The translations under genes and the position numbers were made by a program. Positions 16,121 to 56,704 of a DNA stretch of 64,000 bases are shown here, piece by piece. Below the pieces are notes generated by a model, which searched no databases, was not told the origin of the DNA, and saw only the letters and a list, made by a program, of their open reading frames with translations. Source of the DNA: Flavobacteriales bacterium (GTDB lineage Bacteria; Bacteroidota; Bacteroidia; Palsa-965); contig JBEIPA010000017.1 of the NCBI GenBank assembly GCA_040377305.1, forward strand, positions 32,001 through 96,000. The letters are read 5' to 3'. Position 1 is the stretch's first letter. Each line of letters opens with the position of its first letter.

Positions 16121-16239
16121 TCGGATTTCGGAGATAAACTCAAACGTATCTCATAAAATCCAAGAGCTATGCATTGATCTTTACCGCGATGATCCGAGAG
16201 ATTCCCTAACAACACACACATATCAGAATCCGCGTTCCA
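16121..16239. repeat. nested palindromic element, copy C (core plus right arm only)
   Basis: GGATTTCGGAGATA-10 nt-TATCTCATAAAATCC, then TTACC-N4-TGATCCGAG-N-GAT, then AATCCGCGTTCCA; matches the copies at 46283 and 56512. Confidence 0.8.
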
Positions 16240-16256
16240 AAATCCGACTCCAATTT

Positions 16257-17093
16257 CTACGCAATATTCTTCTCCAGGTACTCACTAATCAATCCCGATA
16301 TCTGCGGAATCGCTTCGAGATTTAGTGTATGCCCTACTCCATTCAGTACAATAAATTCGGATTCCGGAATGTTCTCATTCACTTGTTGAGCAATTGCAAC
16401 CGGGATCAGCAAATCTTCCTCGCCGTGAATTATCATCACCGGAGCTTTCACCTTCATCAGCTGCGCACGGTAATCGCCTCGTGTTTCAGTTGCCTGCATG
16501 AGCTTGAATAAATTGTCAGCCGATAAATTATTACTGATCCGCAATTCCTTCAGAGTCTGAATTGGAATAAGTGGTTTCTCGAAATAAGTTGCACCCAATA
16601 CCACAGGCAACATCACATCGAGCAACAAGGGATAGCCCCCAACCCGCAACGCCGATTTCCAGCTTTCTCCCATTGCCGTAAATATTTCGGCGTTGTGCGC
16701 GAATGTCGACATCAGAACAGCACCCACATATTTCTCCGGAAACAATACTAAGGCGTGTTGCGCAACAGCACTTCCGTAAGAAAGTCCGCAGAGAACCGGT
16801 TTTTTAATTTCGAGCGCGGCCACAAGTGCAGTCACATCATTCGCATGTTGGTCATACGATCTGAATTCGCCTTGCGCAGTTGACTTTCCCTGAAACACGA
16901 GATCGAGCAACAACACGTTGCATTTCCCGATGAATTTCGGAGTAACCGCCGCCCACGACAATGTGCTCTGCGATAAACCATTCAGAAAAATGACAGTTGG
17001 TAATTCTTCACCGATAAAATGGTGTTGATAGAATAAGTTGTTGCCATCCTGCAATTCAAATAAATTCTCTTGTATTCCCGGTGCCGTGTCCAT
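16257..17093 (-). CDS. alpha/beta-fold hydrolase (enol-lactonase-like)
   Basis: FLNG, GLSYG nucleophile elbow, HGEED, GVGH. Confidence 0.88.
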   Translation of the reverse strand: MDTAPGIQENLFELQDGNNLFYQHHFIGEELPTVIFLNGLSQSTLSWAAVTPKFIGKCNVLLLDLVFQGKSTAQGEFRSYDQHANDVTALVAALEIKKPVLCGLSYGSAVAQHALVLFPEKYVGAVLMSTFAHNAEIFTAMGESWKSALRVGGYPLLLDVMLPVVLGATYFEKPLIPIQTLKELRISNNLSADNLFKLMQATETRGDYRAQLMKVKAPVMIIHGEEDLLIPVAIAQQVNENIPESEFIVLNGVGHTLNLEAIPQISGLISEYLEKNIA

Positions 17094-17130
17094 ATAATCG
17101 GTAATTTTCCTCTGGGAAAGATAGAATTAT

Positions 17131-18600
17131 TTGAAGGGAAATTCGGCACTATTTACAAACCCTACTCCGCTGGACCAGCTTGGTGACATACTTGATAACC
17201 TTCCGATCGGAATTGTAATTGTAAACAGTTCCGGCACGATTGTTTACCACAACAACTGTATTACAAGTCAATATGGTGAATTCAAAGGGAACAACATTGC
17301 AAACTTACTCGCAGGATTTCCACAACACCTTTTCACTGCAGCAGATAATTCCTTCCCATTTAATTACAACGATAGCCTTCATAACGGTGCAATCAATGTT
17401 CAGTGCAAAATCAAACGCGATAAGAATGGAAATCTTCTTGTAAGTGTTGTGGAAGGTGATGTTCAACTCAAGCAGTTACGCGACATTGAAGCCAAAAAAA
17501 ATGCCGCTGAAAATTTGTTACGGTCTGCGATTCTGGGAACAGGAACATTGGAACAAGCATTGACAGAAGTTTGTCGCATTGCATCTGCTGCAATGGAAGT
17601 ATCGCGTGTCAACATCTGGGAGTTCGGTGATGGAATTACATCAATTACGGGTCTTGTTAACTATGATAATCGTTTCACCGAATTACTTCCGAATGCAACG
17701 TTATACCGCTACCAGATTCCGAGATACTTCAGCCTATTCGAAACCGAAGAAATTATTCCAACCTCTGACGCACTGAATCATCCGAGTACTGCCGAGCTGA
17801 AAGAAAGTTATCTCGAAGTAAACGGAATTCGTTCATTGATGGACGTGCCGGTTCGAATCGGAGGAAAGATGATCGGACTTGTTTGCTTCGAAGACACGAA
17901 GAAAATGCGTGATTGGGATCCGGGTGAACAAAAATTCGGTCTCTTTATCTCGCAAGTGATTGCGCTTACAATTGAGTCAACACGCAGAAAGAAAACGCAG
18001 AATGACCTCGAGCTGATTCTGGATGAGAAGCGTATTCTGCTCAATGAAATTCACCGTCGGGTTCGCAACAACTTTGCATTGATTCAGGATTTGCTTCGTG
18101 CTGAGTCAGGTCGTGCGCAAGACGATTATCACAAAGAACTTTTTTCTGATCTCCGAAACCGGATCAATAGCCTTGATATGCTGCAAAGACAGCTTTATCA
18201 ATCGGAGAAAGTTGATCGTGTTAACTTCCGTGATCTGATACTTGACCTTGTTGCCGGTTACCGTTCCACGTTCTCCGGTTCGCAAACAGATTTCATCACT
18301 ACGCTCGACCAGTGTGAGTTGAATGTGGCAAAGGCCTCAATATCCGGTCTGTTTGTGAATGAAATCATGATGATGTTGATGAGTGAAGCTGGCCGATTGA
18401 AATCGAAAGAGCAAATTTCAATTCGTCTGAAGAAAGTAAACTCTCGTGTGAACATTGCGATAGGTTCATCGATAAACATTGATTCACGCAGCGAAAGAGA
18501 ACGCATGCTCACATCATTCGAATTGGCTCAAAAACTGGGAAGCAAGCTCGAGATCGATCGGTCAAAAGGCACCGGCTATTCGCTGAGTTTCGACGCTTAG
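17131..18600 (+). CDS. PAS-like/GAF/HisKA_2 sensor kinase-like protein (degenerate, probable pseudokinase)
   Basis: GAF motifs VSRVNIW, GIRSLMDVPV and R.W...EQ.F; HisKA_2-like EIHRRVRNN; HATPase boxes eroded; TTG start uncertain. Confidence 0.78.
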   Translation: MKGNSALFTNPTPLDQLGDILDNLPIGIVIVNSSGTIVYHNNCITSQYGEFKGNNIANLLAGFPQHLFTAADNSFPFNYNDSLHNGAINVQCKIKRDKNGNLLVSVVEGDVQLKQLRDIEAKKNAAENLLRSAILGTGTLEQALTEVCRIASAAMEVSRVNIWEFGDGITSITGLVNYDNRFTELLPNATLYRYQIPRYFSLFETEEIIPTSDALNHPSTAELKESYLEVNGIRSLMDVPVRIGGKMIGLVCFEDTKKMRDWDPGEQKFGLFISQVIALTIESTRRKKTQNDLELILDEKRILLNEIHRRVRNNFALIQDLLRAESGRAQDDYHKELFSDLRNRINSLDMLQRQLYQSEKVDRVNFRDLILDLVAGYRSTFSGSQTDFITTLDQCELNVAKASISGLFVNEIMMMLMSEAGRLKSKEQISIRLKKVNSRVNIAIGSSINIDSRSERERMLTSFELAQKLGSKLEIDRSKGTGYSLSFDA

Positions 18601-18709
18601 TCAACTGATTTTCTCCTTTTCATTGTTACTTCTTTGTGAATGAAATATTTTGATTCGCACCTGCATTGGCGTATTTTTCTTGTGGCAAAAACACACTTAA
18701 ACCCATTGC

Positions 18710-21700
18710 ATGATGAAGAGAACTCTACTCCTACTACTTCTCTCCGTGTTTGTTTTCTCAACTCATTATTTATCAGCACAGGCGTCTGCTTGTCCTCAGG
18801 TAAATGCCGGAGTGGATCAAACAATCTGTCCGGGCCAATGCGTGAATCTTACAGCAACCATTCAAGGTCCGCATGCCACAACATCGTACATAGGTAATGC
18901 GATTCCTTATAGCCCGTATTCTTATACAACAGGCACTCCGGTTCTCGTTAACATAGACGACGTTTGGACGCCGGTGATTAACATGCCATTCTGCTTCCAG
19001 TTTTATGGTAACACATACAACCAACTTGTTATTGGTTCGAATGGACTGATTTCATTTAACCTCGCTTACGCAGGTGCATTTTGTCAGTGGTCATTCGTAA
19101 ATCCGATTCCAACCAATACATGCCCGATCAATTCGATCATGGCACCGTACCATGATATTGATCCTTCGATCGGTGCAACTTCAGATACGCGTTACGCAAC
19201 TTATGGAACTGCACCATGCCGCGAGTTTGTAGTGAGCTGGTATAACGTTCCGATGTTCAGCGGAGCGTGTAACTCCCAACTTGCAAGTCAGCAGATTGTT
19301 TTGCATGAGAACACCAACATCATTGACATTTACATTGCCAACAAGCCTTTGTGCGCAAGTTGGAATGGTGGTCGCGCCACAGAGGGAATTCAGAATGCTG
19401 CGGGTACCGCTGCTAACTTTGTTCCCGGACGTAATGCGTCACAGTGGGTTGCCGCAAACGATGGTTATCGTTTCACACCGAGTGGTGCTGCGCAGTATGT
19501 GTTGACATGGTTCGGACCTAGCGGAAGTTTAGGTAGTGCAAATCCCATTACGGTTTGTCCCTCAACAACTACAACATACACTGCTCAGGTTGTAAATACG
19601 ACATGCGCCGGTAACGTAACTGTTTCTGATCAGGTAACAGTTAATACTACTTCAGGAGGAATAACTACAACAGGATCGCAAACAGATATTTTGTGTAACG
19701 GACTTTGCACCGGATCCGCAACTGTTAATATCACGGCGGGAACAGGACCGTTTACTTACGTCTGGGCGCCAGCACCCGGAGCGGGACAAGGAACTGCAAG
19801 CGCCAGTGGATTGTGCCCCGGTATATACACATGCATCGTGTCGAATGCCGCCGGGTGTACCGCATCACAAACATTCAACATCACCCAAGTCCCCGTCATA
19901 ACAGCAACACAAACACAAACGAATGTATTGTGTAACGGAAGTTGTACGGGACAAGCCAACGTTGCCGCCGGTGGAGGAACCGGTACATACAGCTACAACT
20001 GGGCACCAGCACCGGGTGGCGGACAAGGAACCGCTACAGCAACCGGACTCTGTGCGGGGGTTTATGTGTGTACAATCACATCCGGTCCTGCTGGTTGTAC
20101 GATTACAAGAACATTTACAATTACTGCGCCGCCTGCAATTACATCGACGATGGCCATGACACCAGCAACGTGTGGAGCATTCAACGGCACTGCAAGTATT
20201 ACTCCGAGTGGCGGGGCAGGTGGATACACTTACAATTGGACTCCTGGAAATCCGACGGGTGATGGAACAAATACTATTTCCGCTTTAGCGCCGGGTGCAT
20301 GGGTTTGCACTGTAACTGATGCCAACGGATGTACGCACACGAACACGATCAACGTAACGTCAACTACCGGGATCACTGGAACATTTACTGCAACTAACGC
20401 AGCGTGTTTCGGTGGAACAGGAACTGCAACTGCTGTGCCTACCGGCGGAACCGGACCGTACACTTATGCATGGGCACCATCAGGTGGTAACAATGCAATA
20501 GCAACAGTGCCTGCAGGTGTTTACACCTGTACGATTACCGATGTTCCAACCGGATGCACCGTTGTAATTACTGTGACAATCACTCAACCACCCGCACTGA
20601 GCGTTACCCCTACACAAACGAATATCACGTGTAATGCACTTTGTAATGGTGCTGCATCTGTAAACGTTTCAGGAGGAACTGCAGGTTACACGTACAATTG
20701 GTCACCTGCACCGGGCGCGGGACAAGGAACAGCGAATGCAAGTTCTTTGTGTGTTGGAACCTACACATGCACTACTACCGATGCGAACGGTTGTACGATC
20801 ACTCAATCATTCAACATCACCCAACCTCCTGCACTCACACTTGTCATGTCAATGACTCAAGCAACGTGTGGCAATGCGAACGGTCAGGCATGCGTTGTGG
20901 CATCGGGAGGATCACCGGGTTACACGTATGCGTGGTTACCAGGTGGAGGAACTGGTGCTTGTGCAACTGGATTGCTCTCGAACATTTATACCGTGACTGT
21001 TACAGATCTCAATGGTTGCACAGCTACGAACTCAATCAATGTCACAAACGCAGCTGCACCTTCTGCAACAATTACGGCATTCACAAACGTTAGCTGCTTC
21101 GGTGGCAATAATGGATCTGCAACTGTTGCTGCGAGCGGGGGAACAGGTCCTTATACATACACATGGTCACCGGTTGGCGGAAACACAACCGTCGGAACTC
21201 CTCTCACTGCGCAGAATTATACAGTGACTGTTGCGGATGCAAACGGATGTACAACTACAGCTACCGTTGCAATAACACAACCGCCGGTATTAACCGCAAC
21301 TGCTGCAGGATCAAATGTATTGTGTAACGGTGCTTCTACAGGATCTGTTACCATCACAGCTGGTGGTGGCGTTGGTCCTTACACTTACGCATGGACTCCA
21401 AGTGGTGGACCAGGGAATACAGCAGCGAATGTTCCTGCAGCGCTATATTCATGCACAGTTACGGATGTAAATGGTTGTACGGTTACTGCAACATTCAATG
21501 TAACCCAACCAACGGCACTTAGCGTAACAACATCCTTTACTCAGTCAACATGTGGTTTGCCTAACGGTAGCGCGTGTGTGAATGCATCGGGTGGAGCTGG
21601 TGGATATACTTACGCGTGGAGTCCGGTTGCTGGTGCCGGAAACTGTCTCAACAATATTGTAGGTGGAATATATACCTGTACCGTCACGGATGTGAATGGA

Positions 21701-23908
21701 TGTACAATAACAACTACAGTTAACGTCCCAAGCGCAAATACTCCTGTGGTATCGATTATTTCTTTCACGAACGTAACATGCTTCGGCGGAACTGACGGTG
21801 GTGCAACTGCATCTTCAACCGGAGGAACCACACCATATGCTTACGTGTGGAGCAACGGAGATCCGGATTCAGTGCTTAGTACTGTAGGAATGGGGACCTA
21901 TATCGTGACCGTTACAGATGCCAATAGTTGTTCAGACACAACGCAGGTAACGATCACAGAACCACCACAGCTTACAGCAACAATTTCTGGAGTTGATATT
22001 TTGTGCTTTGGAAACACAACAGGATCTGCAACTGTCACACCTTCCGGCGGAACCGGTGCTTACTCCTATGTGTGGAATCCTTCAGCACAAATCACACAAA
22101 CGGCAACGAACCTTGGTGCAGGAACTTATAGTTGTACCATTACAGATGCGAACGGATGTACAACAATGGTTTCAGTCACGCTTACTGAACCACCGTTACT
22201 CACTGTTGCATCAGCAGGATTCAATGTAACGTGTTTCGGTGCATGCGACGGACAGCTTGTTTCCATTCCGGGCGGTGGCGTTCCGAACTACACATTCAAC
22301 TGGTCATCGGGATGCATTACTCCCGCATGTAGCAACGTGTGTACCGGAATTTACACCGTAACTGTTACAGACATGAATGGTTGCACAGCGTCGGATACAG
22401 CGCTGGTAACTGAACCAACTGCAATTGTTATTAATACATCTGCGGTAGATGCACATTGCAACCAGGCTGATGGTTCTGCTTCTGCAAATGCTAATGGCGG
22501 AACCGGACTGTTAACTTATCAATGGATTAGTGGTCCGGCGAATCAGAATTACAACAACATTGTTGCCAATACTTATTCGGTGATCGTAACGGATGCAAAT
22601 GGTTGTGCAGATACAGCGACAGCAGTAGTGAACAATCTGAATGGAGTAACAGCAACGTTGAATGCGTCCGTTGATCTTTCCTGCTTCCAATCGAATGATG
22701 GATCTATCGACATTGATGCAAGTGGCGGAACACCGGGCTATACATACACATGGTCGCCTAACGTTTCTGCAACCGACATCGGATCGAATCTATCAGCTCA
22801 ACCTTACGCTATTACTGTTACTGATGCTGCTGGTTGTACATCTGTTGTGAATGTGATCCTGACTGAACCTCCCGTGCTAACGCTTGCGGCAACTGCAACA
22901 CCAGCTGCAGTTTGCGCCGGATCACCGGTAACGTTGAATGCTATTGCAAATGGAGGAACTCCGGCTTATACATACACATGGAATCCGGGTGCCATGATTG
23001 GTGCAACGCAAAACATTACTCCACCGGCAACTCAAACGTATACTGTTGATGTGACTGACGCGAATGGCTGCACAGCATCTGCACCCGTTCTTGTTACTGT
23101 AAATGATTTGCCTGTCTCAACATTTACATCAGATCTGGTTTCAGGTTGCGCACCACTCACCGTTAATTTCACTGACTCAAGTACTGTATTAGCTCCGGGT
23201 ACTATTACAGGATGGACCTGGGATTTCGGTGATAATAACACCTCAACACAGCAAAGTCCTTCGCACACGTACACCACACCTGGTGTTTATACAGTGATTC
23301 TTACTGCAACAACCAGCGCAGGATGTACGCAAACCATTACGATGAACAATTACATCAATGTGTTTGCCGTACCCGTTGCAGCATTTATAGCCGGCCCACA
23401 ACCGACAACGATTCTGAATCCCGACATTTCATTCACCGATGCTTCTACCAATGCGGCGTCGTGGCATTGGACTTTCGGTGATGCAACAACACCATCAAGC
23501 TCTACAGACCAGAATCCAACGTTCACGTATGATGAACCATCCTGTTACAATGTGGTGCTGGAAGTAACTTCCATTGACGGTTGCGTAGATGTTGACTCAC
23601 AACAAGTATGCATTGACCCAGACGTAATTATTTATGTACCGAATGCATTCACGCCGAATGACGATGGAGTCAATGATGAATTCATTCCTATGATGGAAGG
23701 AATTGATCCTGATAACTATCAGTTGTGGGTATTCGATCGTTGGGGAAATATGATCTGGTACACGGATGATATAGATGAAGGTTGGAATGGTATCGTACTT
23801 GGCGGAACGGAATTATGTCAGATCGACACGTATGTCTGGAAACTGAAGTGTAAAGATATTCTCGACAAACGCCACGAATTGATTGGGCGTGTAAGCTTAA
23901 TTAGGTAG
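18710..23908 (+). CDS. SprB-repeat / PKD adhesin with T9SS type B (gliding-motility-associated) CTD, 1732 aa
   Basis: Signal peptide; ~76-aa modules C...GSA.V...GG.GPYTY.W...YTVTVTDANGC; PKD WDFGD; CTD YVPNAFTPNDDGVND...VFDRWG. Confidence 0.92.
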   Translation: MMKRTLLLLLLSVFVFSTHYLSAQASACPQVNAGVDQTICPGQCVNLTATIQGPHATTSYIGNAIPYSPYSYTTGTPVLVNIDDVWTPVINMPFCFQFYGNTYNQLVIGSNGLISFNLAYAGAFCQWSFVNPIPTNTCPINSIMAPYHDIDPSIGATSDTRYATYGTAPCREFVVSWYNVPMFSGACNSQLASQQIVLHENTNIIDIYIANKPLCASWNGGRATEGIQNAAGTAANFVPGRNASQWVAANDGYRFTPSGAAQYVLTWFGPSGSLGSANPITVCPSTTTTYTAQVVNTTCAGNVTVSDQVTVNTTSGGITTTGSQTDILCNGLCTGSATVNITAGTGPFTYVWAPAPGAGQGTASASGLCPGIYTCIVSNAAGCTASQTFNITQVPVITATQTQTNVLCNGSCTGQANVAAGGGTGTYSYNWAPAPGGGQGTATATGLCAGVYVCTITSGPAGCTITRTFTITAPPAITSTMAMTPATCGAFNGTASITPSGGAGGYTYNWTPGNPTGDGTNTISALAPGAWVCTVTDANGCTHTNTINVTSTTGITGTFTATNAACFGGTGTATAVPTGGTGPYTYAWAPSGGNNAIATVPAGVYTCTITDVPTGCTVVITVTITQPPALSVTPTQTNITCNALCNGAASVNVSGGTAGYTYNWSPAPGAGQGTANASSLCVGTYTCTTTDANGCTITQSFNITQPPALTLVMSMTQATCGNANGQACVVASGGSPGYTYAWLPGGGTGACATGLLSNIYTVTVTDLNGCTATNSINVTNAAAPSATITAFTNVSCFGGNNGSATVAASGGTGPYTYTWSPVGGNTTVGTPLTAQNYTVTVADANGCTTTATVAITQPPVLTATAAGSNVLCNGASTGSVTITAGGGVGPYTYAWTPSGGPGNTAANVPAALYSCTVTDVNGCTVTATFNVTQPTALSVTTSFTQSTCGLPNGSACVNASGGAGGYTYAWSPVAGAGNCLNNIVGGIYTCTVTDVNGCTITTTVNVPSANTPVVSIISFTNVTCFGGTDGGATASSTGGTTPYAYVWSNGDPDSVLSTVGMGTYIVTVTDANSCSDTTQVTITEPPQLTATISGVDILCFGNTTGSATVTPSGGTGAYSYVWNPSAQITQTATNLGAGTYSCTITDANGCTTMVSVTLTEPPLLTVASAGFNVTCFGACDGQLVSIPGGGVPNYTFNWSSGCITPACSNVCTGIYTVTVTDMNGCTASDTALVTEPTAIVINTSAVDAHCNQADGSASANANGGTGLLTYQWISGPANQNYNNIVANTYSVIVTDANGCADTATAVVNNLNGVTATLNASVDLSCFQSNDGSIDIDASGGTPGYTYTWSPNVSATDIGSNLSAQPYAITVTDAAGCTSVVNVILTEPPVLTLAATATPAAVCAGSPVTLNAIANGGTPAYTYTWNPGAMIGATQNITPPATQTYTVDVTDANGCTASAPVLVTVNDLPVSTFTSDLVSGCAPLTVNFTDSSTVLAPGTITGWTWDFGDNNTSTQQSPSHTYTTPGVYTVILTATTSAGCTQTITMNNYINVFAVPVAAFIAGPQPTTILNPDISFTDASTNAASWHWTFGDATTPSSSTDQNPTFTYDEPSCYNVVLEVTSIDGCVDVDSQQVCIDPDVIIYVPNAFTPNDDGVNDEFIPMMEGIDPDNYQLWVFDRWGNMIWYTDDIDEGWNGIVLGGTELCQIDTYVWKLKCKDILDKRHELIGRVSLIR

Positions 23909-23982
23909 TGTCTCTTCGTTTGAAAGTATGGAACCCCGTTTAAGTATTCAGGCTTTCTTGCCCATTAATTTTCAACACAATT

Positions 23983-24035
23983 TTCAACGAAAGCGCGTTA
24001 AACTTCGACCAGACCTGACAATTGTTAGACGAATC
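23983..24035 (+). promoter_or_regulatory. candidate LytTR-type triple direct repeat
   Basis: TTCAACGAA, TTCGACCAG and TTAGACGAA at an exact 21-nt period upstream of the giant adhesin. Confidence 0.4.
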
Positions 24036-24135
24036 TGAGCTTTTGCACATTTCCGGGAAAACTGTTGCCAACTTGCTGTATTTCACTAAATTGTGCATGG
24101 CAAATTAACCCAGAGTACCCCTTACACGACTCAAA

Positions 24136-37966: not shown

Positions 37967-38042
37967 GATCTTCTTTTTTCTCGGTGTGAACGCGAACTTA
38001 CAATAAAAAGTGAGACGTGCTTTTTCGTTACGCCTTCGGCGT

Positions 38043-38149
38043 TTTGCCACAGATTCGCAGATTACGCTGATCTCGCAGATTAAAATATTCGCGGATAACG
38101 TTAAGAAATGAATTTGCGCAATCTGAGAAATCTGCGAATCTGCGGCAAA
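38043..38149. repeat. 8-9-nt-period inverted array (GCAGATT family)
   Basis: TTTGCCACAGATTCGCAGATT... at 38043-38081 pairs with ...AATCTGCGAATCTGCGGCAAA at 38111-38149. Confidence 0.75.
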
Positions 38150-38234
38150 GCGCGTTTACGCGCAAGGGAAAGAAACATGAGGATTTGATAACAACAAGGA
38201 CACTTGAAATTCAGCCGAGATGCCGATTTTTGCC

Positions 38235-44792: not shown

Positions 44793-44807
44793 ATTAACCG
44801 AACTCCT

Positions 44808-45224: not shown

Positions 45225-45268
45225 TTACTTTCTATTTGCGATATAAACTTTTCCCTAAACACTCAGAG

Positions 45269-45300
45269 AAAAAATAAAGACCAGCCATTAGCTGGTCTTT
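45269..45300 (-). terminator. terminator of tRNA-Leu
   Basis: Minus strand AAAGACCAGC-TAATG-GCTGGTCTTT followed by ATTTTTT. Confidence 0.8.
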
Positions 45301-45302
45301 TG

Positions 45303-45383
45303 TGCGGACGGGGGGACTCGAACCCACACGCCTCTCGGCACCAGATCCTAAGTCTGGCTTGGCTACCATTACAACACGTCCGC
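45303..45383 (-). tRNA. tRNA-Leu (anticodon TAG)
   Basis: Acceptor GCGGACG/CGTCCGC, D-loop TGGTA, anticodon arm CCAGA-CTTAGGA-TCTGG, long variable arm, GGTTCGAGTCC; CCA not encoded. Confidence 0.96.
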
Positions 45384-45576
45384 ATAAACGGTATTCGGTA
45401 GCGGTGCAAAGATCGCATTTTTACTACAATTTCAAACTCTTTCAAAGGTTTAACGCTACCCCCAACTATTTATTTTCTGCGAAATTATCGCGTTCTGGCA
45501 CATGACCGTTTGCTGGCATACCAGTTGATTCCCTAAGGCATCCTTGACCAAAAAGTCAAACCTAAAAAATCTAACT

Positions 45577-46275: not shown

Positions 46276-46282
46276 ACGAAAT

Positions 46283-46477
46283 TGGAACGCGGATTTTGAT
46301 GGGTGTGGCATATTAGTCCTACACTCGGATCACCAGGTGTATTATACATTGCGCAATCGGATTTTATGAGATAAGCTTAGCAAATCTATCTCATGAAATC
46401 CGATTCCCGCTTTTCTATTTACCACACTGATCCGAGCGATTGAATAGAAAACAATGAGCATCAAAATCCGCGTTCCA
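46283..46477. repeat. nested palindromic element, copy A (complete)
   Basis: 19-bp perfect outer IR, 9-bp middle IR CTCGGATCA/TGATCCGAG, 19-bp inner IR with 1 mismatch, four 22-nt non-complementary spacers. Confidence 0.9.
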
Positions 46478-46497
46478 TTTTGCCGTAATTTAGTGGA

Positions 46498-47871: not shown

Positions 47872-47905
47872 GTGCACCGCTTGACCTTTCTTTCCGAGGT
47901 ATGAC

Positions 47906-47936
47906 AAAAAAAGCCGCAACATTTCTGCCGCGGCTT
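47906..47936 (-). terminator. minus-strand intrinsic terminator with no adjacent minus-strand gene
   Basis: Minus strand AAGCCGCGGCA-GAAA-TGTTGCGGCTT followed by a T-tract. Confidence 0.7.
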
Positions 47937-48111
47937 CTCTCAATACGTGATGTTGAAATACATTGTTCAAAAAACAATGTAGCTTTTACCAACCGAACAT
48001 CACACCTACTCTATTCTTGAATTTCTCTGATTTTCGTGCGTCTGCTTTACAAATACGTAGCTCTTGAAATTCCGGATTTAAGACAAAGAAGAATTTAACT
48101 AACTTGACCGT

Positions 48112-48603
48112 ATGTGGAAATACGGACTGTTACTTTTTGCCCTGCTCGCAGCCTGTGGCGGGGAAAATATTCCGCATGAGAACAGCGATACGGTGAATGA
48201 CACATCGGCAACCGTATCCATTCCTCAATTAGATATCAGCGGAGAATTCGAAGCCGGATTCCTGAAGGGAGAAACCGAAATGTTTTTCGATAAAAACCTA
48301 TCTACGCTTTCAATTACAGATCTGCAAGACGACGATTCGCTTTACATCCGATACAAAGCCACATTTCCATGCGAAGAGTGCCGGGTGGAATTTCAAATAT
48401 GGCGTAACGACAAGTATGTTGAAATTGTCCGTGATACTGGTTTTGGCGGCGAACCCGTTTACATTCCCGCGTCAATGCTTTTAGAGGCCAGTAAATTCGG
48501 AACACCTGAATATTCGGAACTAGGAATTTATATGTCGGTGCGACAATATCATCCTGTAGAAACAGGTAACAAACGTTTCTTGTTTTATGTCAGCCTGAAA
48601 TAA
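48112..48603 (+). CDS. hypothetical lipoprotein
   Basis: Lipobox LLAAC; a CEEC motif. Confidence 0.7.
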   Translation: MWKYGLLLFALLAACGGENIPHENSDTVNDTSATVSIPQLDISGEFEAGFLKGETEMFFDKNLSTLSITDLQDDDSLYIRYKATFPCEECRVEFQIWRNDKYVEIVRDTGFGGEPVYIPASMLLEASKFGTPEYSELGIYMSVRQYHPVETGNKRFLFYVSLK

Positions 48604-48655
48604 ACGCTTCGTTGTGTTGTTCGGCAAACAGTTCAACTCGTCCTTCCGCGTTAGC

Positions 48656-49240
48656 CTAATTCTGTTTCGAGAGCTTCTGCAGATGCTCTCCCGTGTAGAA
48701 TGCAACCTGATGTACGAATTTCACATCAGCCTCCTTGAACCACGCAGGATTCTTGTGTTCAGAGTCAATGATCATCACAACCACTCCATTTGATATTACC
48801 GGCACCGACAATTCAGAATAACGTACGTCATCGTCGGGAACGTAACGCGGATCTTTGCTCGTGTCACCTATCCACTCTGATTTTCCGCTTACAGCAACGT
48901 GACCAACAATCCCGCGTCCAAATGGAATATTGATGGGATTCAGAATACTCTGTTTGTCTGGATTCTTAGGACCATAAGCTGCAATCTGTCTGCACACTTT
49001 GTCGGTCTGATCAACTTTGTACACCACACAATCCTGATATCCGGCTGCACCCATAACATCATGCGCCACAAACCAGGAAAGTTCATCTTCCGATTTGAAA
49101 CTGCTTTTGATTAAATGGGTAATGAGTTTATTCTTGCGATTCCCTTTTGCTTCTTTGCGTAAGTAGACAATGAGAATAATAATTCCTACCAGAGGAATGG
49201 TGAGATAAACCGATTGTTCACCAAGCTTAACGTAATCCAT
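48656..49240 (-). CDS. membrane-anchored GAF domain protein
   Basis: One N-terminal TM; DCVVY, AAYGPK, G.GIVG.VA..G, D.RY..DD..R.SELSVP, IDSEH. Confidence 0.85.
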   Translation of the reverse strand: MDYVKLGEQSVYLTIPLVGIIILIVYLRKEAKGNRKNKLITHLIKSSFKSEDELSWFVAHDVMGAAGYQDCVVYKVDQTDKVCRQIAAYGPKNPDKQSILNPINIPFGRGIVGHVAVSGKSEWIGDTSKDPRYVPDDDVRYSELSVPVISNGVVVMIIDSEHKNPAWFKEADVKFVHQVAFYTGEHLQKLSKQN

Positions 49241-50040
49241 CAGTCATTTTTTTTCGCACGTTCCCAATACACATCCATCTCCGCCAGAGTCATTTCACCC
49301 ATCTTCTTTCCGTCATTCTGCGATTCACGTTCAAGATACTGAAAACGTCGGATAAATTTCTTATTCGTTCGCTCTAATGCATCCTCAGGATTAACACCTA
49401 AAAAACGTGCGTAATTAATTAACGCAAACATTACATCACCAAATTCATCCTCCAGTTTCTCAACCTTGCTTCCTTGTTTAACCTCTACGAGCAATTCTTC
49501 CATCTCCTCGTACACTTTCCCCCACACCTGTTCCGGTTTTTCCCAATCAAATCCAACTGCACGCGCTTTCTCTTGTATGCGTGTAGACTTTACCATTGCG
49601 GGCAGTGAAACCGGGACGCCGGTTAACACCGAACGAAATCCGTCAGCGGTAATACTATCCTTTTCCTTCAGCTTGATCTTCTCCCAATTCTCCTTCACCT
49701 GTTCTTCATTCTCGACTTTCACATCGCCGTAAATGTGCGGATGGCGATTAATTAATTTATCGCACTCTGCATGAATTACGTCCGCTATATCGAAATCCTT
49801 CGTTTCACTTCCGATACGGGCATAGAAAACAATGTGCAACAGTACATCGCCCAGCTCTTTCTTAATTCCGTCCATATTCTTGTCGAGAATCGCATCCCCC
49901 AGCTCATACATTTCCTCAATGGTAAGATGACGGAGACTTTCGAAGGTTTGTTTTTTATCCCACGGACATTGCTCACGCAGTTCATCCATGATTTGCAACA
50001 TTCTTCCGAATGCTTCCTTTTGCGCCGTATAATCCTTCAT
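49240..50040 (-). CDS. mazG: nucleoside triphosphate pyrophosphohydrolase
   Basis: LREQCPWD..QT, EE.YEL.DAI, ELGDVLL, RHPH, GFDW, EFGD..F, N.KF..RF. Confidence 0.96.
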   Translation of the reverse strand: MKDYTAQKEAFGRMLQIMDELREQCPWDKKQTFESLRHLTIEEMYELGDAILDKNMDGIKKELGDVLLHIVFYARIGSETKDFDIADVIHAECDKLINRHPHIYGDVKVENEEQVKENWEKIKLKEKDSITADGFRSVLTGVPVSLPAMVKSTRIQEKARAVGFDWEKPEQVWGKVYEEMEELLVEVKQGSKVEKLEDEFGDVMFALINYARFLGVNPEDALERTNKKFIRRFQYLERESQNDGKKMGEMTLAEMDVYWERAKKND

Positions 50041-50107
50041 GAATTCACAATTTTTCGGCTTCGAAGTTAGCCATTAGAACCAGTGAAACTATTCTTATTT
50101 TCGCAGA

Positions 50108-51235
50108 ATGTCGCTGCGCCGATTTTCACTGTTAATTACCGCTATTCTGGCACCCTTGTTTTTGTTCTCGCAAACGGAAACAGTGATTAGTACGCCTGCA
50201 GGCTATTACCTCGGCATTGGTGGTGGCTATGGATTTCTATGGGCGCACCGACCTACAATGTCGCACCTCGTAAACAAACACATTCCTGCATTGGAAGTAA
50301 GTCTTTCGAAAACGACCAATCAAACCCAGTGTTGGCATCTGCCTTACAAAAATCCGCAGAGTGGTGCTTCATTTACCGTTATTCCATTGGGAGATGATCG
50401 GCTCGGCACAGCTTACGGGCTCTATCCGTTTGTGATGTTGCCCTTACGTGAGAATGCAAAGAAACTCAATCTCAATATTCAACTTGGCTGGGGAATTGGT
50501 TGGATCACCAACAAGTTTGATCCGCTTGAGAATCACAAGAACAATGCAATTGGTTCCAATCTCAACACCTGTATTCTCATTCGCGGTACGCTGAAATACG
50601 AGTGTTCCGATAAACTGCAGTTCGAGGCCGGAGTTGGAATGACACATTTCTCCAATGGTGCAATGTCTCTGCCGAATCTGGGTTTGAATATTCCCATGAT
50701 TGCAGCAGGATTCCATTACCGAATCGGATTAGTGAATGAACAATGTGATCAATCTGTAAAAGACCGCGTCTTGCGCACAGATTCACTGGTCAATGACAGA
50801 CATTGGCACTTAACCATGACCGCGAATCTTGGCATGAATGACATTGCTGCACCCGGCGGAAATCGTTTCGGTATCGCGAACGTACAGTTTACGTACATGA
50901 AAAACACCGCACGTAAACATCGGTTTGGTGGAGGACTTGATGTGATGTACAGCCAGGGCGTTCGACACATCATGGTGTACAACGATGATCCAACAACAAC
51001 ACTACAAGCCGTTCAGGTAGGTGTAAAATTCAGTTATGAATTAGTATTCGGCAGATTTTACATGCCCTACGAAATGGGGGTATATGTACTTTCCAAATAC
51101 AAAGAAGCGGGACCCGTGTATAATCGGATCGGTGCGCGATACCTGATTAATGATCATCTCATTGCAAGTATTACGCTGAAAACACATTTAGCGCGGGCAG
51201 AACATTGGGAAATCGGATTCGGTTGGAGAATATGA
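50108..51235 (+). CDS. outer-membrane beta-barrel, acyloxyacyl hydrolase / PagL-like
   Basis: Signal peptide; N..NNAIGS, HFSNG...PNLG.N; C-terminal GFGWRI. Confidence 0.78.
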   Translation: MSLRRFSLLITAILAPLFLFSQTETVISTPAGYYLGIGGGYGFLWAHRPTMSHLVNKHIPALEVSLSKTTNQTQCWHLPYKNPQSGASFTVIPLGDDRLGTAYGLYPFVMLPLRENAKKLNLNIQLGWGIGWITNKFDPLENHKNNAIGSNLNTCILIRGTLKYECSDKLQFEAGVGMTHFSNGAMSLPNLGLNIPMIAAGFHYRIGLVNEQCDQSVKDRVLRTDSLVNDRHWHLTMTANLGMNDIAAPGGNRFGIANVQFTYMKNTARKHRFGGGLDVMYSQGVRHIMVYNDDPTTTLQAVQVGVKFSYELVFGRFYMPYEMGVYVLSKYKEAGPVYNRIGARYLINDHLIASITLKTHLARAEHWEIGFGWRI

Positions 51236-51990
51236 ACAGAGCAAAATACATACCGTTAGCAATTTGTTTGCTCGTTGTAATCCTGAGTGGAATTCAGGGA
51301 TGCAAGAAGGAGAACATGTGCGATTGCATCAAACGTACTGGTGACGTTATAACGGAAACGCGTACGATCGAACCATTCACTGCACTATTCATTGAAGATA
51401 AAGTGAATGTCATTCTTACAGAAAATGCAGCACTTACAACAGAACTGAAAGTTGAAGCCGGAGAAAATCTTATTCCGCTCATCAAAACCGAAGTTGTAAA
51501 TGGTATCCTGCGAATCAAAAATGCCAACAAGTGCGACTTCATGCGCAAGTATGATGTTCCGGTAAACATCTATGTAAATTACAATCCGAACATTGTTCGT
51601 ATAACAAACAAGGGTACGGGCTTAGTATCGAACACCGATACATGTACTGCTTCAAATGTCGATCTGGAAACTATCAGCGCAGGAGATATCAAGCTCAACG
51701 TTGATGCAGGAACCATTCTTACACATCAACACAGTGCGGGCGATGTGGAACTTTACGGAACCGCGAATGAAGTGATCATCTACAACACGGGCAACGGATT
51801 CACACTTACCGACGAATGCCAGGTTGATTACGCCTGGGTGTACACGCGTACCACCGGAAAAATTACAGTCCATACAACCGGCTTGCTTATCAGTGAAATT
51901 GAAGGTCCGGGCAATGTATACTATCGAGGTGAGCCTACGGAAATCAACTCTACAGAGAACGGAGAAGGCCGCCTTTTACCATTGCAGTAA
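51232..51990 (+). CDS. GIN/DUF2807 head-domain lipoprotein
   Basis: Lipobox IQGC; G.VITETR, VEAGENL, GPGNVYYRG, GEGRL; ATGA overlap with the upstream gene. Confidence 0.82.
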   Translation: MNRAKYIPLAICLLVVILSGIQGCKKENMCDCIKRTGDVITETRTIEPFTALFIEDKVNVILTENAALTTELKVEAGENLIPLIKTEVVNGILRIKNANKCDFMRKYDVPVNIYVNYNPNIVRITNKGTGLVSNTDTCTASNVDLETISAGDIKLNVDAGTILTHQHSAGDVELYGTANEVIIYNTGNGFTLTDECQVDYAWVYTRTTGKITVHTTGLLISEIEGPGNVYYRGEPTEINSTENGEGRLLPLQ

Positions 51991-52051
51991 GACGCAACTT
52001 TTTGAAGATTTTGCGTCTATAGGGCACAGTTCTTGCCATCTTTGTACAGTT

Positions 52052-53341
52052 ATGACACGGAATTTCCTTTTCACAGCAGTCCTTGCAATTTTTTCAACGT
52101 GTGTTTTTGCTCAGGGAGCAGATTACGTTTCCGAAAAAGTGATCCGTTACGACGATCGCGTCTATGAGCCTACAATTGCAACCGTGCTTCTCAGCCCTGA
52201 TCTGCCAAGCATGCTGCCACCAATCATTGCATTGAATTCCGAAGAGCAATTGTTTTTCTCCTTCGATGATCTCACCGGCGACATGAGGCAACTTTCGTAC
52301 ACGGTTGTGCATTGCAACGCAAAATGGGAACCATCTGATTGCAGCGTGAGTGACTACCTCGACGGATTTTACGAGCAGGAAATTTCCTCATACAATTATT
52401 CCAGGAACACCTTGCAGCGATACATTCACTACAACTCTACTTTCCCGCATGATAATTTCAAAATTCTTATCTCCGGAAATTATGTGCTGAAAGTTTTTGA
52501 AACCGGTAGTCAGGACAGTCTCGTGCTCACGAAACGATTCATGGTGTATGAGAAAAAAGTGGAACTCTCCGGAGATGTTCATGCTCCAACAATTGTTGCC
52601 GACCGCAATTACAAACAGGAAATAGATTTCATCGTATCCTACTCGACTCCTGATATTACAAATCCCTTCCAGGAAATCTACCCGGTAATTCTTCAGAATG
52701 GTCGCTGGGACAATGCGATTACTGGCTTGCAACCTCAGTTTCTCATGGACAAAGAGCTGCGTTACGATTACGAAGATGTGAACGTGTTCAAAGGCGGTAA
52801 AGAATTTCGTTGGTTCGACACGCGTACATTGCGTTTGAATACAGAGCGCGTAGAGAAAATCACCAAGGATTCAACCTACCATGTTTACCTGCTCGCCGAT
52901 GAACGCAGAACGTTTAAACGGTACATGAACAATGCCGACATCAACGGAAAATATCTCGTAAAGACGCAGGATAATGAAGATGATGAAATTGAAGCTGAGT
53001 ATAGTTACGTTCACTTTTTTCTCGCGTGGCCCGTTCAGGAAATGGGAGGCAACATGTACGTCATGGGTTCTATGACCGACTGGCAATGCACATCGAAAAA
53101 CAAAATGACTTATGATAAAGTTAAACGCGGGTACGAATGCGTTCTCTATCTCAAGCAGGGTTACTACAATTACCAGTATGCATTTCTCAAAGACGGAGAA
53201 GTTGCAGCCGACGAATACACGGCCGAGGGTATGAACCAAGAGACCGAAAACGACTATTGGATTCTGATCTATCTGAGAAAACCGGGTGCGAGAACAGATG
53301 AGTTAATAGCGGTAAAGCGCCTCAATTCACGCATTCACTAG
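52052..53341 (+). CDS. T9SS plug protein (DUF5103 family)
   Basis: Signal peptide from ATG 52052; FSFDDL, HCN..W..S, SGNY, QNGRW, GG.EFR.FD, LKQGYYNY.Y, ETENDY. Confidence 0.8.
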   Translation: MTRNFLFTAVLAIFSTCVFAQGADYVSEKVIRYDDRVYEPTIATVLLSPDLPSMLPPIIALNSEEQLFFSFDDLTGDMRQLSYTVVHCNAKWEPSDCSVSDYLDGFYEQEISSYNYSRNTLQRYIHYNSTFPHDNFKILISGNYVLKVFETGSQDSLVLTKRFMVYEKKVELSGDVHAPTIVADRNYKQEIDFIVSYSTPDITNPFQEIYPVILQNGRWDNAITGLQPQFLMDKELRYDYEDVNVFKGGKEFRWFDTRTLRLNTERVEKITKDSTYHVYLLADERRTFKRYMNNADINGKYLVKTQDNEDDEIEAEYSYVHFFLAWPVQEMGGNMYVMGSMTDWQCTSKNKMTYDKVKRGYECVLYLKQGYYNYQYAFLKDGEVAADEYTAEGMNQETENDYWILIYLRKPGARTDELIAVKRLNSRIH

Positions 53342-53477
53342 TGCCGGTTTCGACCATTGGTCAGAAACCCAAGGAGAAATCTGTTAAAATGGTCGTTTTC
53401 AGCAGTGTCATGTTGAGAAAGAGTCGACGAATAAATTGTTTTTCCAGTGATACTGCTCTAAACTTGTAGACGATATC

Positions 53478-53864
53478 ATGGTAACACGCATCACAAAAGG
53501 CATTCGGATTAGTGTAACCTGTAGGTATCAGGAATTATATTCCCGTCCTGAGAGCAAACACTTTTTCTTTTCGTACCGCGTGCGCATAGAAAACACGTCG
53601 AGTCACACCGTGCAACTCATGCGTCGCCATTGGTTTATTTTCGATGCTGCAACTCAAAAGCAGGAAGTTGAAGGCGAAGGAGTAATCGGACAACAGCCTG
53701 TGCTTTCTCCCGGCGAAGCTTATGAATACGAATCGGCATGTAACCTGACTTCAGAATTAGGAAGTATGCACGGAACGTATTTGTTCAAAAGCATTGAAGA
53801 TGAAACGGAATTCAAAGTGGCAATCCCTCGTTTTGAACTTTCGACTCCGTATCGTCTCAACTAA
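53478..53864 (+). CDS. apaG: ApaG protein
   Basis: F.Y...I.N, VQL..RHW.I.D, EVEGEGVIGQQP.L.PG, GSM.G.Y, IPRF.L. Confidence 0.95.
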   Translation: MVTRITKGIRISVTCRYQELYSRPESKHFFFSYRVRIENTSSHTVQLMRRHWFIFDAATQKQEVEGEGVIGQQPVLSPGEAYEYESACNLTSELGSMHGTYLFKSIEDETEFKVAIPRFELSTPYRLN

Positions 53865-53867
53865 AGC

Positions 53868-53957
53868 GTTGTCATCCCCATAACTATCGGGACGAGTAAA
53901 CTCGAAATTCTGCGGAGCAGTTTGTGTATGGAATACGCTATACCGAGGAATGACAAC
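53868..53957. repeat. GTCAT-ended REP-like element
   Basis: GTTGTCATCCC ... GGAATGACAAC terminal IR with an internal near-palindrome TCCCCATAACTATCGGGA. Confidence 0.55.
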
Positions 53958-54039
53958 CGCCTGAACTAATTCTCTCCCGCTTAACACATTTTAGCGCTTC
54001 CTGACATTCACGCAAAACCATCGTCGTACATTTGCAGCA

Positions 54040-56499
54040 ATGAAATTTTCCCTACCATTCTTTGTATTCATTTGCTTCGTCTTATTCGCGACGAATTCAT
54101 TTGCACAAGCTCCAGCGCAGCAATCTCCTCCACAAATCGGAACAGTTATCGGAATTGTTTCGGACTCTCTGACAGGGCAAAAAATCGAGTATGCTGCGGT
54201 CGCAATTATTGCTGTAACTGATTCAACAGTGAAAGGCGGAGGCATTACGGGTGCGGACGGATCTTTCTCCGTGTCGAAACTTCCTCCGGGGAAATTTATG
54301 GTGCGCATTACATTCATGGGCTACAAGGAATGGTATTCAGCCCCATTCACGATTTCCATGATGAATGTGCAACACGATGCAGGCGCAATCAAACTCAGAG
54401 CGTCTGATGCACAACTCAACACGGTTGTGATCGAAGAGCAACGCAGCGATTACTCGAACAGCATCGACAAGAAAGTGTACGATGTCAATCAGAATATCAC
54501 GAACACAGGTGGCACGGCTACAGAAGTACTGCAAAATATTCCGTCGGTAACAGTTGATATAGACGGCAATGTAAGTTTACGGGGATCTGCAAACGTTACG
54601 ATTCTCATTGACGGAAAGCCTTCGGGCATGACCGGCGACGACCGTCAGGCTGTCCTAGCTCAAATTCCTGCAAGTATGATTGAGCGCATTGAAGTGATTA
54701 CGAATCCTTCTGCGAAATATGATGCGCAGGGAATGGCCGGTATCATCAACATCGTGCTGAAAAAAGAAAAAGGTAAAGGCTACAATGGCACCATTGGCGG
54801 CGGTGTCGGGACAGGAAATAAATACAACGGTAGTGTCAATCTCAATTTGCGCCGTGAGAAAGCAAATTTCTTCGGCAGTTATTCGTATCGGTATGAAGAT
54901 CGCTGGGGAAATTCGTTCGGCGAGCAGAGTACAACAACACCAGATTCTTCATTCCGCTACAACAGTGATGGCGGCAACCTCAGCAGCAGCTATTTTCACA
55001 GCGGAAGAATCGGCACCGACATCTATCTTAATCCGTACAATGCGCTCTCCATTTCCACGGGATACACGTTCAGAAATGAACTGAAAGATGACAGCACACA
55101 TTATTATTTCTACAATGAAGATGATTCACTGACCAGCGACTTTTCTCGCCGTACTGGTGGTTTCGACAAGACCAGCACAATTGATGCGGCCCTCGATTTT
55201 CGTAAGACTTTCCCGGGAAGCAAAAACACATTTTCCTCTGCAGCGTCCTTCACCACGAATCAAAGAAGCGTTCAGAATAATTTCAAGCTCAACTCGTACG
55301 GATTTGAAAATGCACCCTATCAGACGAACAAAGCGAATAACGAATATTACAACGCCATTGTGCAGGCCGATTATAGCCATCCATTCTCCGATTCATTCCG
55401 TATCGAAACGGGTGTGAAATACAACTACCGTCAGTACAGCAATCTTCAGTCAGGTTACCAATATAATTACAGCGACGAGATGTACATTTCTGATCCGCGC
55501 TTTGCCGATCACTTTCAGTACTCCGAAAATGTTGGAGCAGCTTATGTACAAATGAGCATGCATCGCAAGAAACTCGATTACCTTGCCGGTGTGCGCGCAG
55601 AATACACGTACCTCACTGGAACGTCTTCATCACAAGACACGAGCTTCGTGAAAAATTACCTTAACCTGTTTCCGAATGTTGCGGTTCGATACACAACATC
55701 AGGCGGCACAGAAATGCAACTCAGCTATGGACGACGCCTGAACCGTCCGGGGAACTGGCACCTGAATCCATACATCGACTACAGTGATTCGATTAACCTG
55801 CGTACCGGAAATCCATACCTCAATCCGGAGTTTATTCACTCGTTTGACTTCACCATTACGCGTGCACAAATGAAGTACATGTGGTCATTCACATTCTACT
55901 ACCGTCATAGCGACGATGTGATTACGCATGTCAGAACATTTGATCCGGAAACAAACCGTGGACTTATGATGCCGATGAATTATACTTCGGCAGAAAATTA
56001 TGGTGTAGAATACGTGTTACGCGTTCCGTTCAAAAAGAAAGGAAATGTCATGTTGAGCGGTTCTGCATACCTCAATCAGGTGAACGGAGATAACATTGAT
56101 GCTGCACTACAAAGCTCTGCCTTTCACTATAACGCGCGCTTGTCGTTCACGTATAAAATTTTCAAGACAACAACGGCTCAGCTTTCCGGAATGTACTTCT
56201 CACCATTCATTAATCCAATTGGATCTTTCTGGATGAAAGGTGGAGTTGACCTCGGTATTCGTCAGGATATTTTCAAAGGAAAAGCGCAGTTGAGCGCGAA
56301 CCTTACTGACGTATTCAACACCCGCGCATTTGAGGCGACGAATGTTACTCCGCAATACAATTTCAAAGGCGGACGTAAGCGGGAATCGATGGTGCTGATG
56401 CTTTCATTCTCATGGCGCTTCGGAAGCAACGATGAAATATCGAAACGCAAAACGCAACTGAGCGCGCCAAGTGATGAAATGCCGAGTGGCGGATTTTAG
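54040..56499 (+). CDS. TonB-dependent receptor / outer-membrane beta-barrel with carboxypeptidase-regulatory-like N domain
   Basis: Signal peptide; plug L.NIPSV.VD.DGN.SLRG, IEVITNPSAKYDA.G.AGIINI; GNP.L.PE; terminal FSWRFG. Confidence 0.9.
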   Translation: MKFSLPFFVFICFVLFATNSFAQAPAQQSPPQIGTVIGIVSDSLTGQKIEYAAVAIIAVTDSTVKGGGITGADGSFSVSKLPPGKFMVRITFMGYKEWYSAPFTISMMNVQHDAGAIKLRASDAQLNTVVIEEQRSDYSNSIDKKVYDVNQNITNTGGTATEVLQNIPSVTVDIDGNVSLRGSANVTILIDGKPSGMTGDDRQAVLAQIPASMIERIEVITNPSAKYDAQGMAGIINIVLKKEKGKGYNGTIGGGVGTGNKYNGSVNLNLRREKANFFGSYSYRYEDRWGNSFGEQSTTTPDSSFRYNSDGGNLSSSYFHSGRIGTDIYLNPYNALSISTGYTFRNELKDDSTHYYFYNEDDSLTSDFSRRTGGFDKTSTIDAALDFRKTFPGSKNTFSSAASFTTNQRSVQNNFKLNSYGFENAPYQTNKANNEYYNAIVQADYSHPFSDSFRIETGVKYNYRQYSNLQSGYQYNYSDEMYISDPRFADHFQYSENVGAAYVQMSMHRKKLDYLAGVRAEYTYLTGTSSSQDTSFVKNYLNLFPNVAVRYTTSGGTEMQLSYGRRLNRPGNWHLNPYIDYSDSINLRTGNPYLNPEFIHSFDFTITRAQMKYMWSFTFYYRHSDDVITHVRTFDPETNRGLMMPMNYTSAENYGVEYVLRVPFKKKGNVMLSGSAYLNQVNGDNIDAALQSSAFHYNARLSFTYKIFKTTTAQLSGMYFSPFINPIGSFWMKGGVDLGIRQDIFKGKAQLSANLTDVFNTRAFEATNVTPQYNFKGGRKRESMVLMLSFSWRFGSNDEISKRKTQLSAPSDEMPSGGF

Positions 56500-56511
56500 G
56501 AACGAGGAATT

Positions 56512-56704
56512 GGAACGCGGATTTCCAAGTCTGTTGGTTGCTAGTCTCTCGCCCGGATGAATCTACTAAATTTCAAATATCGTATTTGGATTTTATGAGA
56601 TAAACTCAAGCCTATCTCATAAAATCAAATTTCACACAGCTGCTAATTACCGGAGTGATCCGAGTGATCGGCTAACACGCCTCGGACATAGAAATCCGCG
56701 TTCC
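56512..56704. repeat. nested palindromic element, copy B (complete)
   Basis: 14-bp perfect outer IR GGAACGCGGATTTC; middle CCCGGATGA/TGATCCGAG; inner GATTTTATGAGATA-10 nt-TATCTCATAAAATC. Confidence 0.88.

Follow-up and report, generated by a model that had tools for sequence, protein, structure and literature searches.

We analysed a stretch of 64,000 nucleotides (nt), called the window below, from the genome of a Flavobacteriales bacterium (GenBank GCA_040377305.1, contig JBEIPA010000017.1, positions 32,001 to 96,000; G000:C43:32001-96000 within G000, a 5.18-Mb assembly of 60 contigs). The window carries three copies of a palindromic element, whose two arms elsewhere bracket a nuclease gene and resemble each other less than chance would have it. 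All three lie at the positions given in an original prediction made from the sequence alone. Copy A consists of a 90-bp left arm on the plus strand (46284..46373), built of an outer block (GGAACGCGGATTT), filler 1, a GGAT core, filler 2 and an inner block (GGATTTTATGAGATA); a 13-nt loop (46374..46386), which by eye looks as if the inner flanks of the gene-carrying form described below had been joined; and a right arm on the minus strand (46387..46476), which bears a variant of the common filler allele A and is 0.69 identical to its partner. In copy B, a left arm (56512..56602, plus strand), with an additional, degenerate outer unit just before it at 56499-56511, is followed by a 10-nt loop (56603..56612) and a minus-strand right arm (56613..56704) that is 0.68 identical to the left one. 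Of the left arm of copy C, only a decayed inner end is left, which together with a 10-nt loop occupies 16121..16146 (plus strand); one complete arm follows (16147..16238, minus strand). The predicted core spacings were recovered, with GGAT at 36, 32 and ATCC at 32, 36 in the copy at 46283, 36, 33 and (34), 36 in that at 56512, and 34, 36 in that at 16121. The middle motif proposed at the same time stood in its GGAT core, which is invariant; the rest of it varies, and the left arm of copy B reads CCCGGATGA.

That these repeats are real, and far above chance, was borne out by the genome, where base composition would yield 0.1 occurrences of the 13-nt outer motif and we counted 106, and where the 15-nt inner motif is present 49 times; the count of three copies was not. 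An arm profile built from 135 motif-picked arms and then run on the genome returned 145 matches. These group into 67 clusters, of which 47 are simple inverted pairs, 10 are single matches and 10 are mixed or tandem clusters with an arm period of about 101-118 bp. The building block is an arm of about 91 bp (126 of 135 arms measure 90-92 bp), and 137 full-length arms out of the 145 matches were aligned. Its near-invariant blocks, columns 1-13, 44-47 and 78-91, stand at fixed spacing and likely form a candidate phased protein-binding scaffold, judging from the sequence. The bases TGATG/CATCA, once taken as copy-specific, turned out to be the majority bases of columns 14-18 (T118, G80, A122, T101 and G107 among 137 arms). 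The loop is most often 10 nt long (34 of 59 inverted pairs) and measures 13 nt in 10 of the 59. The gene-less element thus delimited is about 193 bp long, with 51 pairs spanning 189-202 bp, 20 of them exactly 193 bp. It is a short non-coding unit bearing terminal inverted repeats, and equally an extragenic, hairpin-forming inverted doublet with preferred distances; the copy at 46283 folds with z = -9.2 relative to 200 shuffles. By crude open reading frame (ORF) calls, the elements are intergenic, 45 of the 51 lie downstream of at least one gene, and convergent gaps host 15 of the 51, against 320 of 1984 background gaps. A scan of the window with Rfam 15 at gathering score matched a tRNA and nothing in the element. 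In the tandem arms at G000:C60:144923-145289 and C45:252165-252482 the linkers are almost identical and adjacent arms differ patchwise, which suggests arm replacement following duplication. Composite copies, whose central loop has been invaded or replaced by another repeat family, were seen at L040, L047, L057, L062, L065 and L073 and at G000:C38:64-313.

Between the blocks, each arm carries two fillers of about 29 nt, and their predicted fixed length held: the outer filler is 29 nt long in 91 of 128 arms and the inner one 29-30 nt in 120 of 128. At each position 125 of the 128 fillers are distinct. Both arms, and both species in which we found the arms (G000 and a second species compared with it, G015), use one degenerate filler consensus in which each column favours two or three letters. 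Linkage between columns inside arms is gone within about 7 nt (125 arms, near-duplicates removed); the arms show no 3-nt, codon-like period, and conservation peaks near 16-17 nt. A reverse transcriptase was considered as the source of the fillers, and a search found none in G000 and one in G015.

The original prediction had proposed looking for a nuclease or transposase gene flanked by the element, and such a gene exists. Among the 59 inverted (+/-) arm pairs, a single one has a gene-sized gap: at G000:C60:144399-145289, one arm, a gene of 132 amino acids (aa) and three opposite arms follow one another. The gene product is a GxxExxY protein (PF13366; TIGR04256 at 131 bits against a cut-off of 35), a family whose function is given as unknown in the available text of PMC3424549. 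Residues G28, G30, E33, Y36, E82, K84, Q96 and Y100 are invariant in 52 GxxExxY sequences, and D72 is conserved in at least 90% of them; the C60 protein has both the GxxExxY and the D...ExK signature, and by sequence its putative catalytic set is E33, D72, E82, K84 and Q96/Y100. Its predicted structure has a mean predicted local distance difference test (pLDDT) score of 92.3. The best Foldseek match of this model is the Cas4 protein SSO0001 (E 7.5e-5), and the best VIA-align rows are BpuSI (Z 8.1, root-mean-square deviation 3.2, 96 residues aligned) and SSO0001 (Z 7.4, root-mean-square deviation 5.8, 106 residues aligned). In the model, the protein has the PD-(D/E)XK nuclease fold; these alignment values indicate a common fold and not a function. 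A sequence search of the PDB with the protein gave no match.

The same gene stands between the same arms at the orthologous locus of G015 (L031, 79% aa identity) and in a third lineage, a metagenome population (L148, 78% aa identity; one of 7 metagenome nuclease loci, all from a single sample), and a PA0069-family radical SAM gene adjoins all three gene-carrying loci. Each of these loci has a gene enclosed by long terminal inverted repeats whose family is dispersed as well. Because the same arms bracket the nuclease gene in three lineages, we are confident that the ~193-bp palindromes are the gene-less form of a GxxExxY nuclease cassette, which supports the predicted option of a mobile unit akin to REPINs or to miniature inverted-repeat transposable elements (MITEs) and gives it a partner gene. 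The short loops of gene-less copies resemble, by eye, the two inner gene flanks joined together. G000 encodes 8 GxxExxY genes and has 10 matches to PF01797 (Y1-transposase). By eye, seven of the eight GxxExxY genes have inverted flanks of their own, and the eighth lies amid repeats. GxxExxY is the sole gene found between inverted arms: none of the 10 PF01797 matches (Y1/HUH, RAYT-type) lies there, and the survey of the 67 clusters, in which no search was aimed at DDE families, found no transposase between arms. Elsewhere in the window, at 38039-38153 and 48990, there are CACAGATT-type palindromes that match the flanks of a further GxxExxY gene, at G000:C56.

Arms and nuclease share their distribution. 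A pattern search of 61 genomes, including the unpublished G012, which is among the 59 without a match, found the arm in G000 and G015 only, and the close nuclease ortholog (79%) is present in the same two genomes, with all other matches at or below 59%. The pattern matched G015 at 69 places, and the G015 arm sample comprised 40 fetched regions and 8 nuclease loci. At 66 homologous loci of the genome collection, long arms were seen only at L077, which is not counted as independent. The homologues are instead flanked by short repeats, with the outer motif on both sides at 25 of 65 loci and 133 of 175 core intervals measuring 9-10 nt. A quick, unfinished tree of 69 rows, from which L031 and L077 were omitted, groups L002 with L148 (support 96) among the short-repeat homologues. 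Since the other homologues carry short repeats and L002 and L148 fall among them, the long arm would most simply be a stretched form of a short repeat with a 9-nt period. The predicted 9-10-nt CGGAT array of the window (61664..61703, minus strand) is present; it belongs to a separate, related family with 15 genome matches, which resembles the short repeats flanking most nuclease homologues. A ParE-like toxin ORF (61290-61664; PF05016, E 9.7e-6) ends at this array and is convergent with folA.

Selection on pairing, which the original prediction had read from the arms, is contradicted by the data of two species. Over the 60 variable columns, partner arms of G000 are 0.430 identical, compared with 0.498+-0.009 for shuffled partners (n=51; 2000 of 2000 shuffles were higher), and those of G015 are 0.428 identical, compared with 0.480+-0.011 (n=36; 0 of 2000 as low). 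Whole-arm identity between partners averages 0.61 and ranges from 0.51 to 0.71 (n=83), a maximum that 15% of random pairs exceed; the full copies of the window, A and B, lie near the top of this range. Real pairs also fold less stably than chimeras, at -32.5 against -38.0 kcal/mol as DNA and -64.0 against -72.8 kcal/mol as RNA. The commonest filler allele, A, illustrates the deficit: it occupies one arm only in 67 of 97 elements (43.9 expected) and both arms in none of the 97 (11.6 expected). The deficit extends to columns 34-77, where shuffles that kept the A and non-A classes never gave values as low in either species (0 of 5000).

The deficit depends on the distance between the arms. Pairs separated by more than 16 nt (n=14, including the three gene-carrying ones) are near random in the three lineages, at 0.467, 0.464 and 0.491, compared with 0.409, 0.414 and 0.404 for their short-spacer counterparts (stratified p=0.0007). 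This easing is as expected from the dependence of inverted-repeat instability on spacer and divergence; for yeast inverted repeats, the available part of PMC10164571 describes instability governed by both, which vanished at 65-75% identity. A second palindrome family of G000, with outer block AACCACATAG (80 arms, 32 pairs; for example C7:81977-82123 and C53:26239, L006), lies beside another GxxExxY gene and deviates in the same direction (0.20 against 0.316+-0.036, 32 pairs), with two arm types obvious there. It has the same filler alleles in an unrelated scaffold, and most of its copies combine one A-type and one B-type arm. A third family, with outer block TTTACACGGCG, has allele A on one arm (G000:C11:48853, L004; C6:177567; C19:147930). 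Allele A thus recurs in three different scaffolds, and its motif is enriched only in G000 and G015 among the 61 genomes (44 and 67 matches, at most 5 elsewhere). Loss of well-paired copies during assembly was considered as a cause of the deficit and is unlikely: arms are found at 9 of 120 contig ends, the one scored pair there has an identity of 0.42, and the other contig-end arms that were read are tandem arrays or ordinary mismatched pairs. The longest identical run in random arm pairs averages 13.6 nt, which is too short to make assembly collapse of well-paired copies a likely explanation.

The best reading of these observations is a selfish palindrome family held below a ceiling of hairpin stability. 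We consider it more likely than not that the elements are gene-less copies of the GxxExxY cassette, likely spread or maintained by the nuclease, and that their arms are likely kept mismatched since copies that pair too well are destroyed. The nuclease would recognise the GGAT-core blocks and help to copy or maintain gene-less elements; its part in their spread is likely by analogy with REPINs and their RAYTs. The 15-bp inner stem may nucleate fold-back into a hairpin or cruciform, and copies whose fillers extend this stem would be cut or deleted. Short-patch recombination among the ~145 copies could then reshuffle arms and renew fillers, so that only sub-threshold pairs would persist. SbcCD was considered as the culling agent and set aside, as SbcC and SbcD were found in neither G000 nor G015; this leaves the element's own nuclease, replication slippage or RNA processing as candidates. 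The sbcD gene was found in 1 of 34 genomes of family members, G000 not among the positives, and its scarcity may be permissive for many long palindrome families.

Several results weigh against this reading. In columns 14-33 of G015, the split into A and non-A arms accounts for the deficit by itself (2533 of 5000 shuffles at or below the observed value), and columns 34-43 of G000 show little deficit. For G000, one identity filter applied globally gives an imperfect fit (chi2 84.5 over 58 columns; predicted SD 4.0, observed 3.3), and filler identity shows no dependence on inner-stem mismatches (r=0.10). Ten of the 14 long-spacer pairs come from one genome, and such pairs could be chimeras. With an average identity of 61%, the arms are at or below the level of 65-75% at which yeast repeats are stable according to the available part of PMC10164571, and ordinary hairpin fragility may therefore be too weak a force; SbcC and SbcD, as noted, were found in neither genome. 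The reading gives no reason for the strong conservation of allele A or for its sharing with unrelated scaffolds. Direct repeats of 2-8 nt at offsets 0-6 around 51 elements show no consistent excess, and no consistent target-site duplication was found; nor did we see an element move or be excised, cut or bound. Given 8 GxxExxY genes and 10 Y1-transposase matches in the genome, another enzyme could act in trans. Finally, the empty-site comparison that had been proposed, made here with G015, yielded no clean empty site: at 28 G015 loci syntenic on both sides, G000 holds arms at 15 and lacks them at 13, and the vacant sites that could be read mostly hold another palindrome family or a short array.

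The same comparison bears on turnover. At one site, L050, G015 has four arms where the window has another palindrome (4366-4490, arms 4404-4427 / 4446-4469); repeat families swap for one another at the same intergenic sites. Orthologous fillers are slightly above random (0.54 in the best orientation against a null of 0.50+-0.05, n=12), and at L061, L055 and L041 the copies of the two species look inverted relative to each other. Near-random fillers might point to hypermutation, an idea that was not borne out: the genes flanking orthologous copies have themselves diverged to about 67-84% identity, and most of copy A persists in a near-identical strain, where about 806 letters contain 6 differences. 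Because of the latter, the sequences do not indicate fast, programmed variation of the fillers.

A bolder version of the preferred reading makes the nuclease itself the culling agent. It is possible, with distinctly less confidence than the general form, that the GxxExxY nuclease polices its own repeats by cutting over-pairing copies, and that repair from other copies brings in new patches of filler. We equally tentatively suggest that the element would then be a self-diversifying selfish palindrome, its arms pushed towards divergence at one site after another, contrary to what REPINs show. On this account, and as speculatively, several nuclease-repeat families of one genome may trade filler modules in a host in which SbcCD was not found.

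An unlikely alternative, which needs no selection against pairing, is inherited asymmetry, in which an ancestral element had a left-type and a right-type arm, its copies inherited one of either type and later inversions scrambled the sides; this would yield part of the pairing deficit. Filler 1 does come in two types, whose occurrence on partner arms is negatively correlated (r=-0.71) and bears no relation to loop direction, the second family clearly divides into A-type and B-type arms, whole elements show weak co-descent (r=0.14 against -0.01+-0.05), and the three apparently inverted orthologous copies fit as well. Against this, even after optimal orientation into two classes, in a test that left out the second members of two tandem duplicates, identity within elements stays below identity across classes in every block (0.413 against 0.458, n=48, and 0.415 against 0.460, n=27). 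Columns with three alleles are depleted of matches too (column 26, 4 against 16.5), none of the arms in the gene-carrying copy of G000 is of the A type, and identity in the three pairs that enclose the gene is 0.43-0.50.

Slightly less likely still is a constraint on RNA, whereby mismatches would prevent long double helices that RNase III cuts, or would tune mRNA stability. The position of the elements downstream of genes and their frequency in convergent gaps suit this idea, as does the direction of a small bias: on the transcribed strand of 30 elements there are 188 G-U pairs and 221 A-C mismatches, as expected if pairing were avoided in RNA. However, the difference is weak (z about -1.6), Rfam gave no match, and the covariation test that had been proposed saw no covariation inside arms that would amount to a helix (191 of 226 arms, near-duplicates removed), with isolated column pairs reaching z=5.3. 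A stranded RNA is likewise unsupported, for loop direction is unrelated to transcription and the side of allele A is unrelated to either.

We regard it as improbable that the element is a DNA-binding platform useful to the host, with phased sites for a nucleoid or regulatory protein and the nuclease gene as a bystander. The tight spacing of the invariant blocks, the recurrence of allele A in three scaffolds and its enrichment in these two genomes alone, and the occupancy of 15 of 28 syntenic sites in both species would agree with such a role, but it leaves unexplained the bracketing of the nuclease at three orthologous loci, the co-distribution and the anti-pairing, and the other 13 sites have no arm and, where read, usually hold another palindrome family. 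A guide-type RNA with variable targeting loops in a constant scaffold is very improbable: the fillers are diverse and fixed in length, but they are variants of one consensus without strand polarity; their mean best score against the arm-masked genome is 13.7, compared with 13.4 for column-shuffled controls; of two copies tried, one gave a single 29-nt phage match (E=0.6, not meaningful) and one no plasmid match, and viral contigs gave no match; a near-identical strain keeps most of copy A; and 47 of the 67 clusters are inverted pairs, unlike guide arrays (CRISPR, TIGR), whose repeats run head to tail around acquired spacers that are unrelated to one another.

Among known systems, REPINs and RAYTs, as far as the available text of PMC3116915 describes them, are alike in their hairpin-forming inverted doublets, extragenic dispersal and tandem clusters, and in having one repeat class beside each partner gene, which is apparently fixed at one locus. 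They differ in the partner, which is an HUH/Y1 transposase there and a 132-aa PD-(D/E)XK nuclease here, and in arm structure, the arms here being 91 bp long with three invariant blocks. Compensatory changes across the hairpin are common in REPINs according to the same text; here we saw no hairpin-keeping compensatory changes, and partner arms pair below chance. TIRtrons, in the accessible portion of PMC3733652, similarly hold a gene within long terminal inverted repeats that also occur without the gene as singles, dimers and clusters. Their TIRYT genes encode tyrosine transposases (HUH + Y) rather than a TIGR04256 / PF13366 protein, and the arm consensus here lacks the GGGGWSAS motif and the GTAG/CGTC tag described there; further flanking repeats are listed in the supplements of that paper. 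Bacterial MITEs, which the same portion gives as 70-300 bp long with terminal inverted repeats of 15-30 bp, resemble the element in size, lack of coding capacity, terminal inverted repeats and place beside coding sequences (PMC3733652). Unlike MITEs, the element is palindromic over its whole length, its copies are highly divergent and without a detected target-site duplication, and no DDE transposase was seen between its arms, DDE families not having been searched for.

Close relatives are the short-array GxxExxY cassettes of the homologues, which have the same protein family, the same outer GAAC(A/G)CGGAT motif and both occupied and empty forms. In the long-arm family, by contrast, cores are 36 and 32-34 nt apart instead of 9-10, the fillers are ~29 nt long, distribution is clade-restricted and anti-pairing is partner-specific. 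A paper from the Di Nocera group is said to describe endonuclease genes flanked by tandem inverted repeats and may cover the short form. Our literature search, with most subscription journals outside its coverage, turned up neither a description of GxxExxY genes lying between inverted repeats nor one of anti-paired arms. What is new here is a repeat of 9-nt period stretched by two ~29-nt fillers, and partner arms less alike than chance. Closely spaced inverted Alu pairs are depleted in the human genome. They share with the element a penalty on arm identity that is eased by spacer length, and differ in being 320-bp repeats of eukaryotes, compared with ~61% identity in a bacterium in which SbcCD was not found (PMC10164571, available part).

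Other features of the window include a tRNA gene on the minus strand (45303-45383), 900 bp ahead of copy A, and more intergenic palindromes made of short tandem units (57191-57320 and 14086-14181).

These results give a widespread nuclease family, whose function is unknown, a concrete candidate substrate, and point to REPIN-like spreading by means of a PD-(D/E)XK enzyme. The arms are a rare natural read-out of the self-complementarity that a bacterial chromosome tolerates: in 97 pairs from three lineages identity is capped near 70%, and searches of the hosts did not find SbcCD. Both the activity of the enzyme and the pairing ceiling are directly testable with one 132-aa protein and with natural and matched-filler arms.

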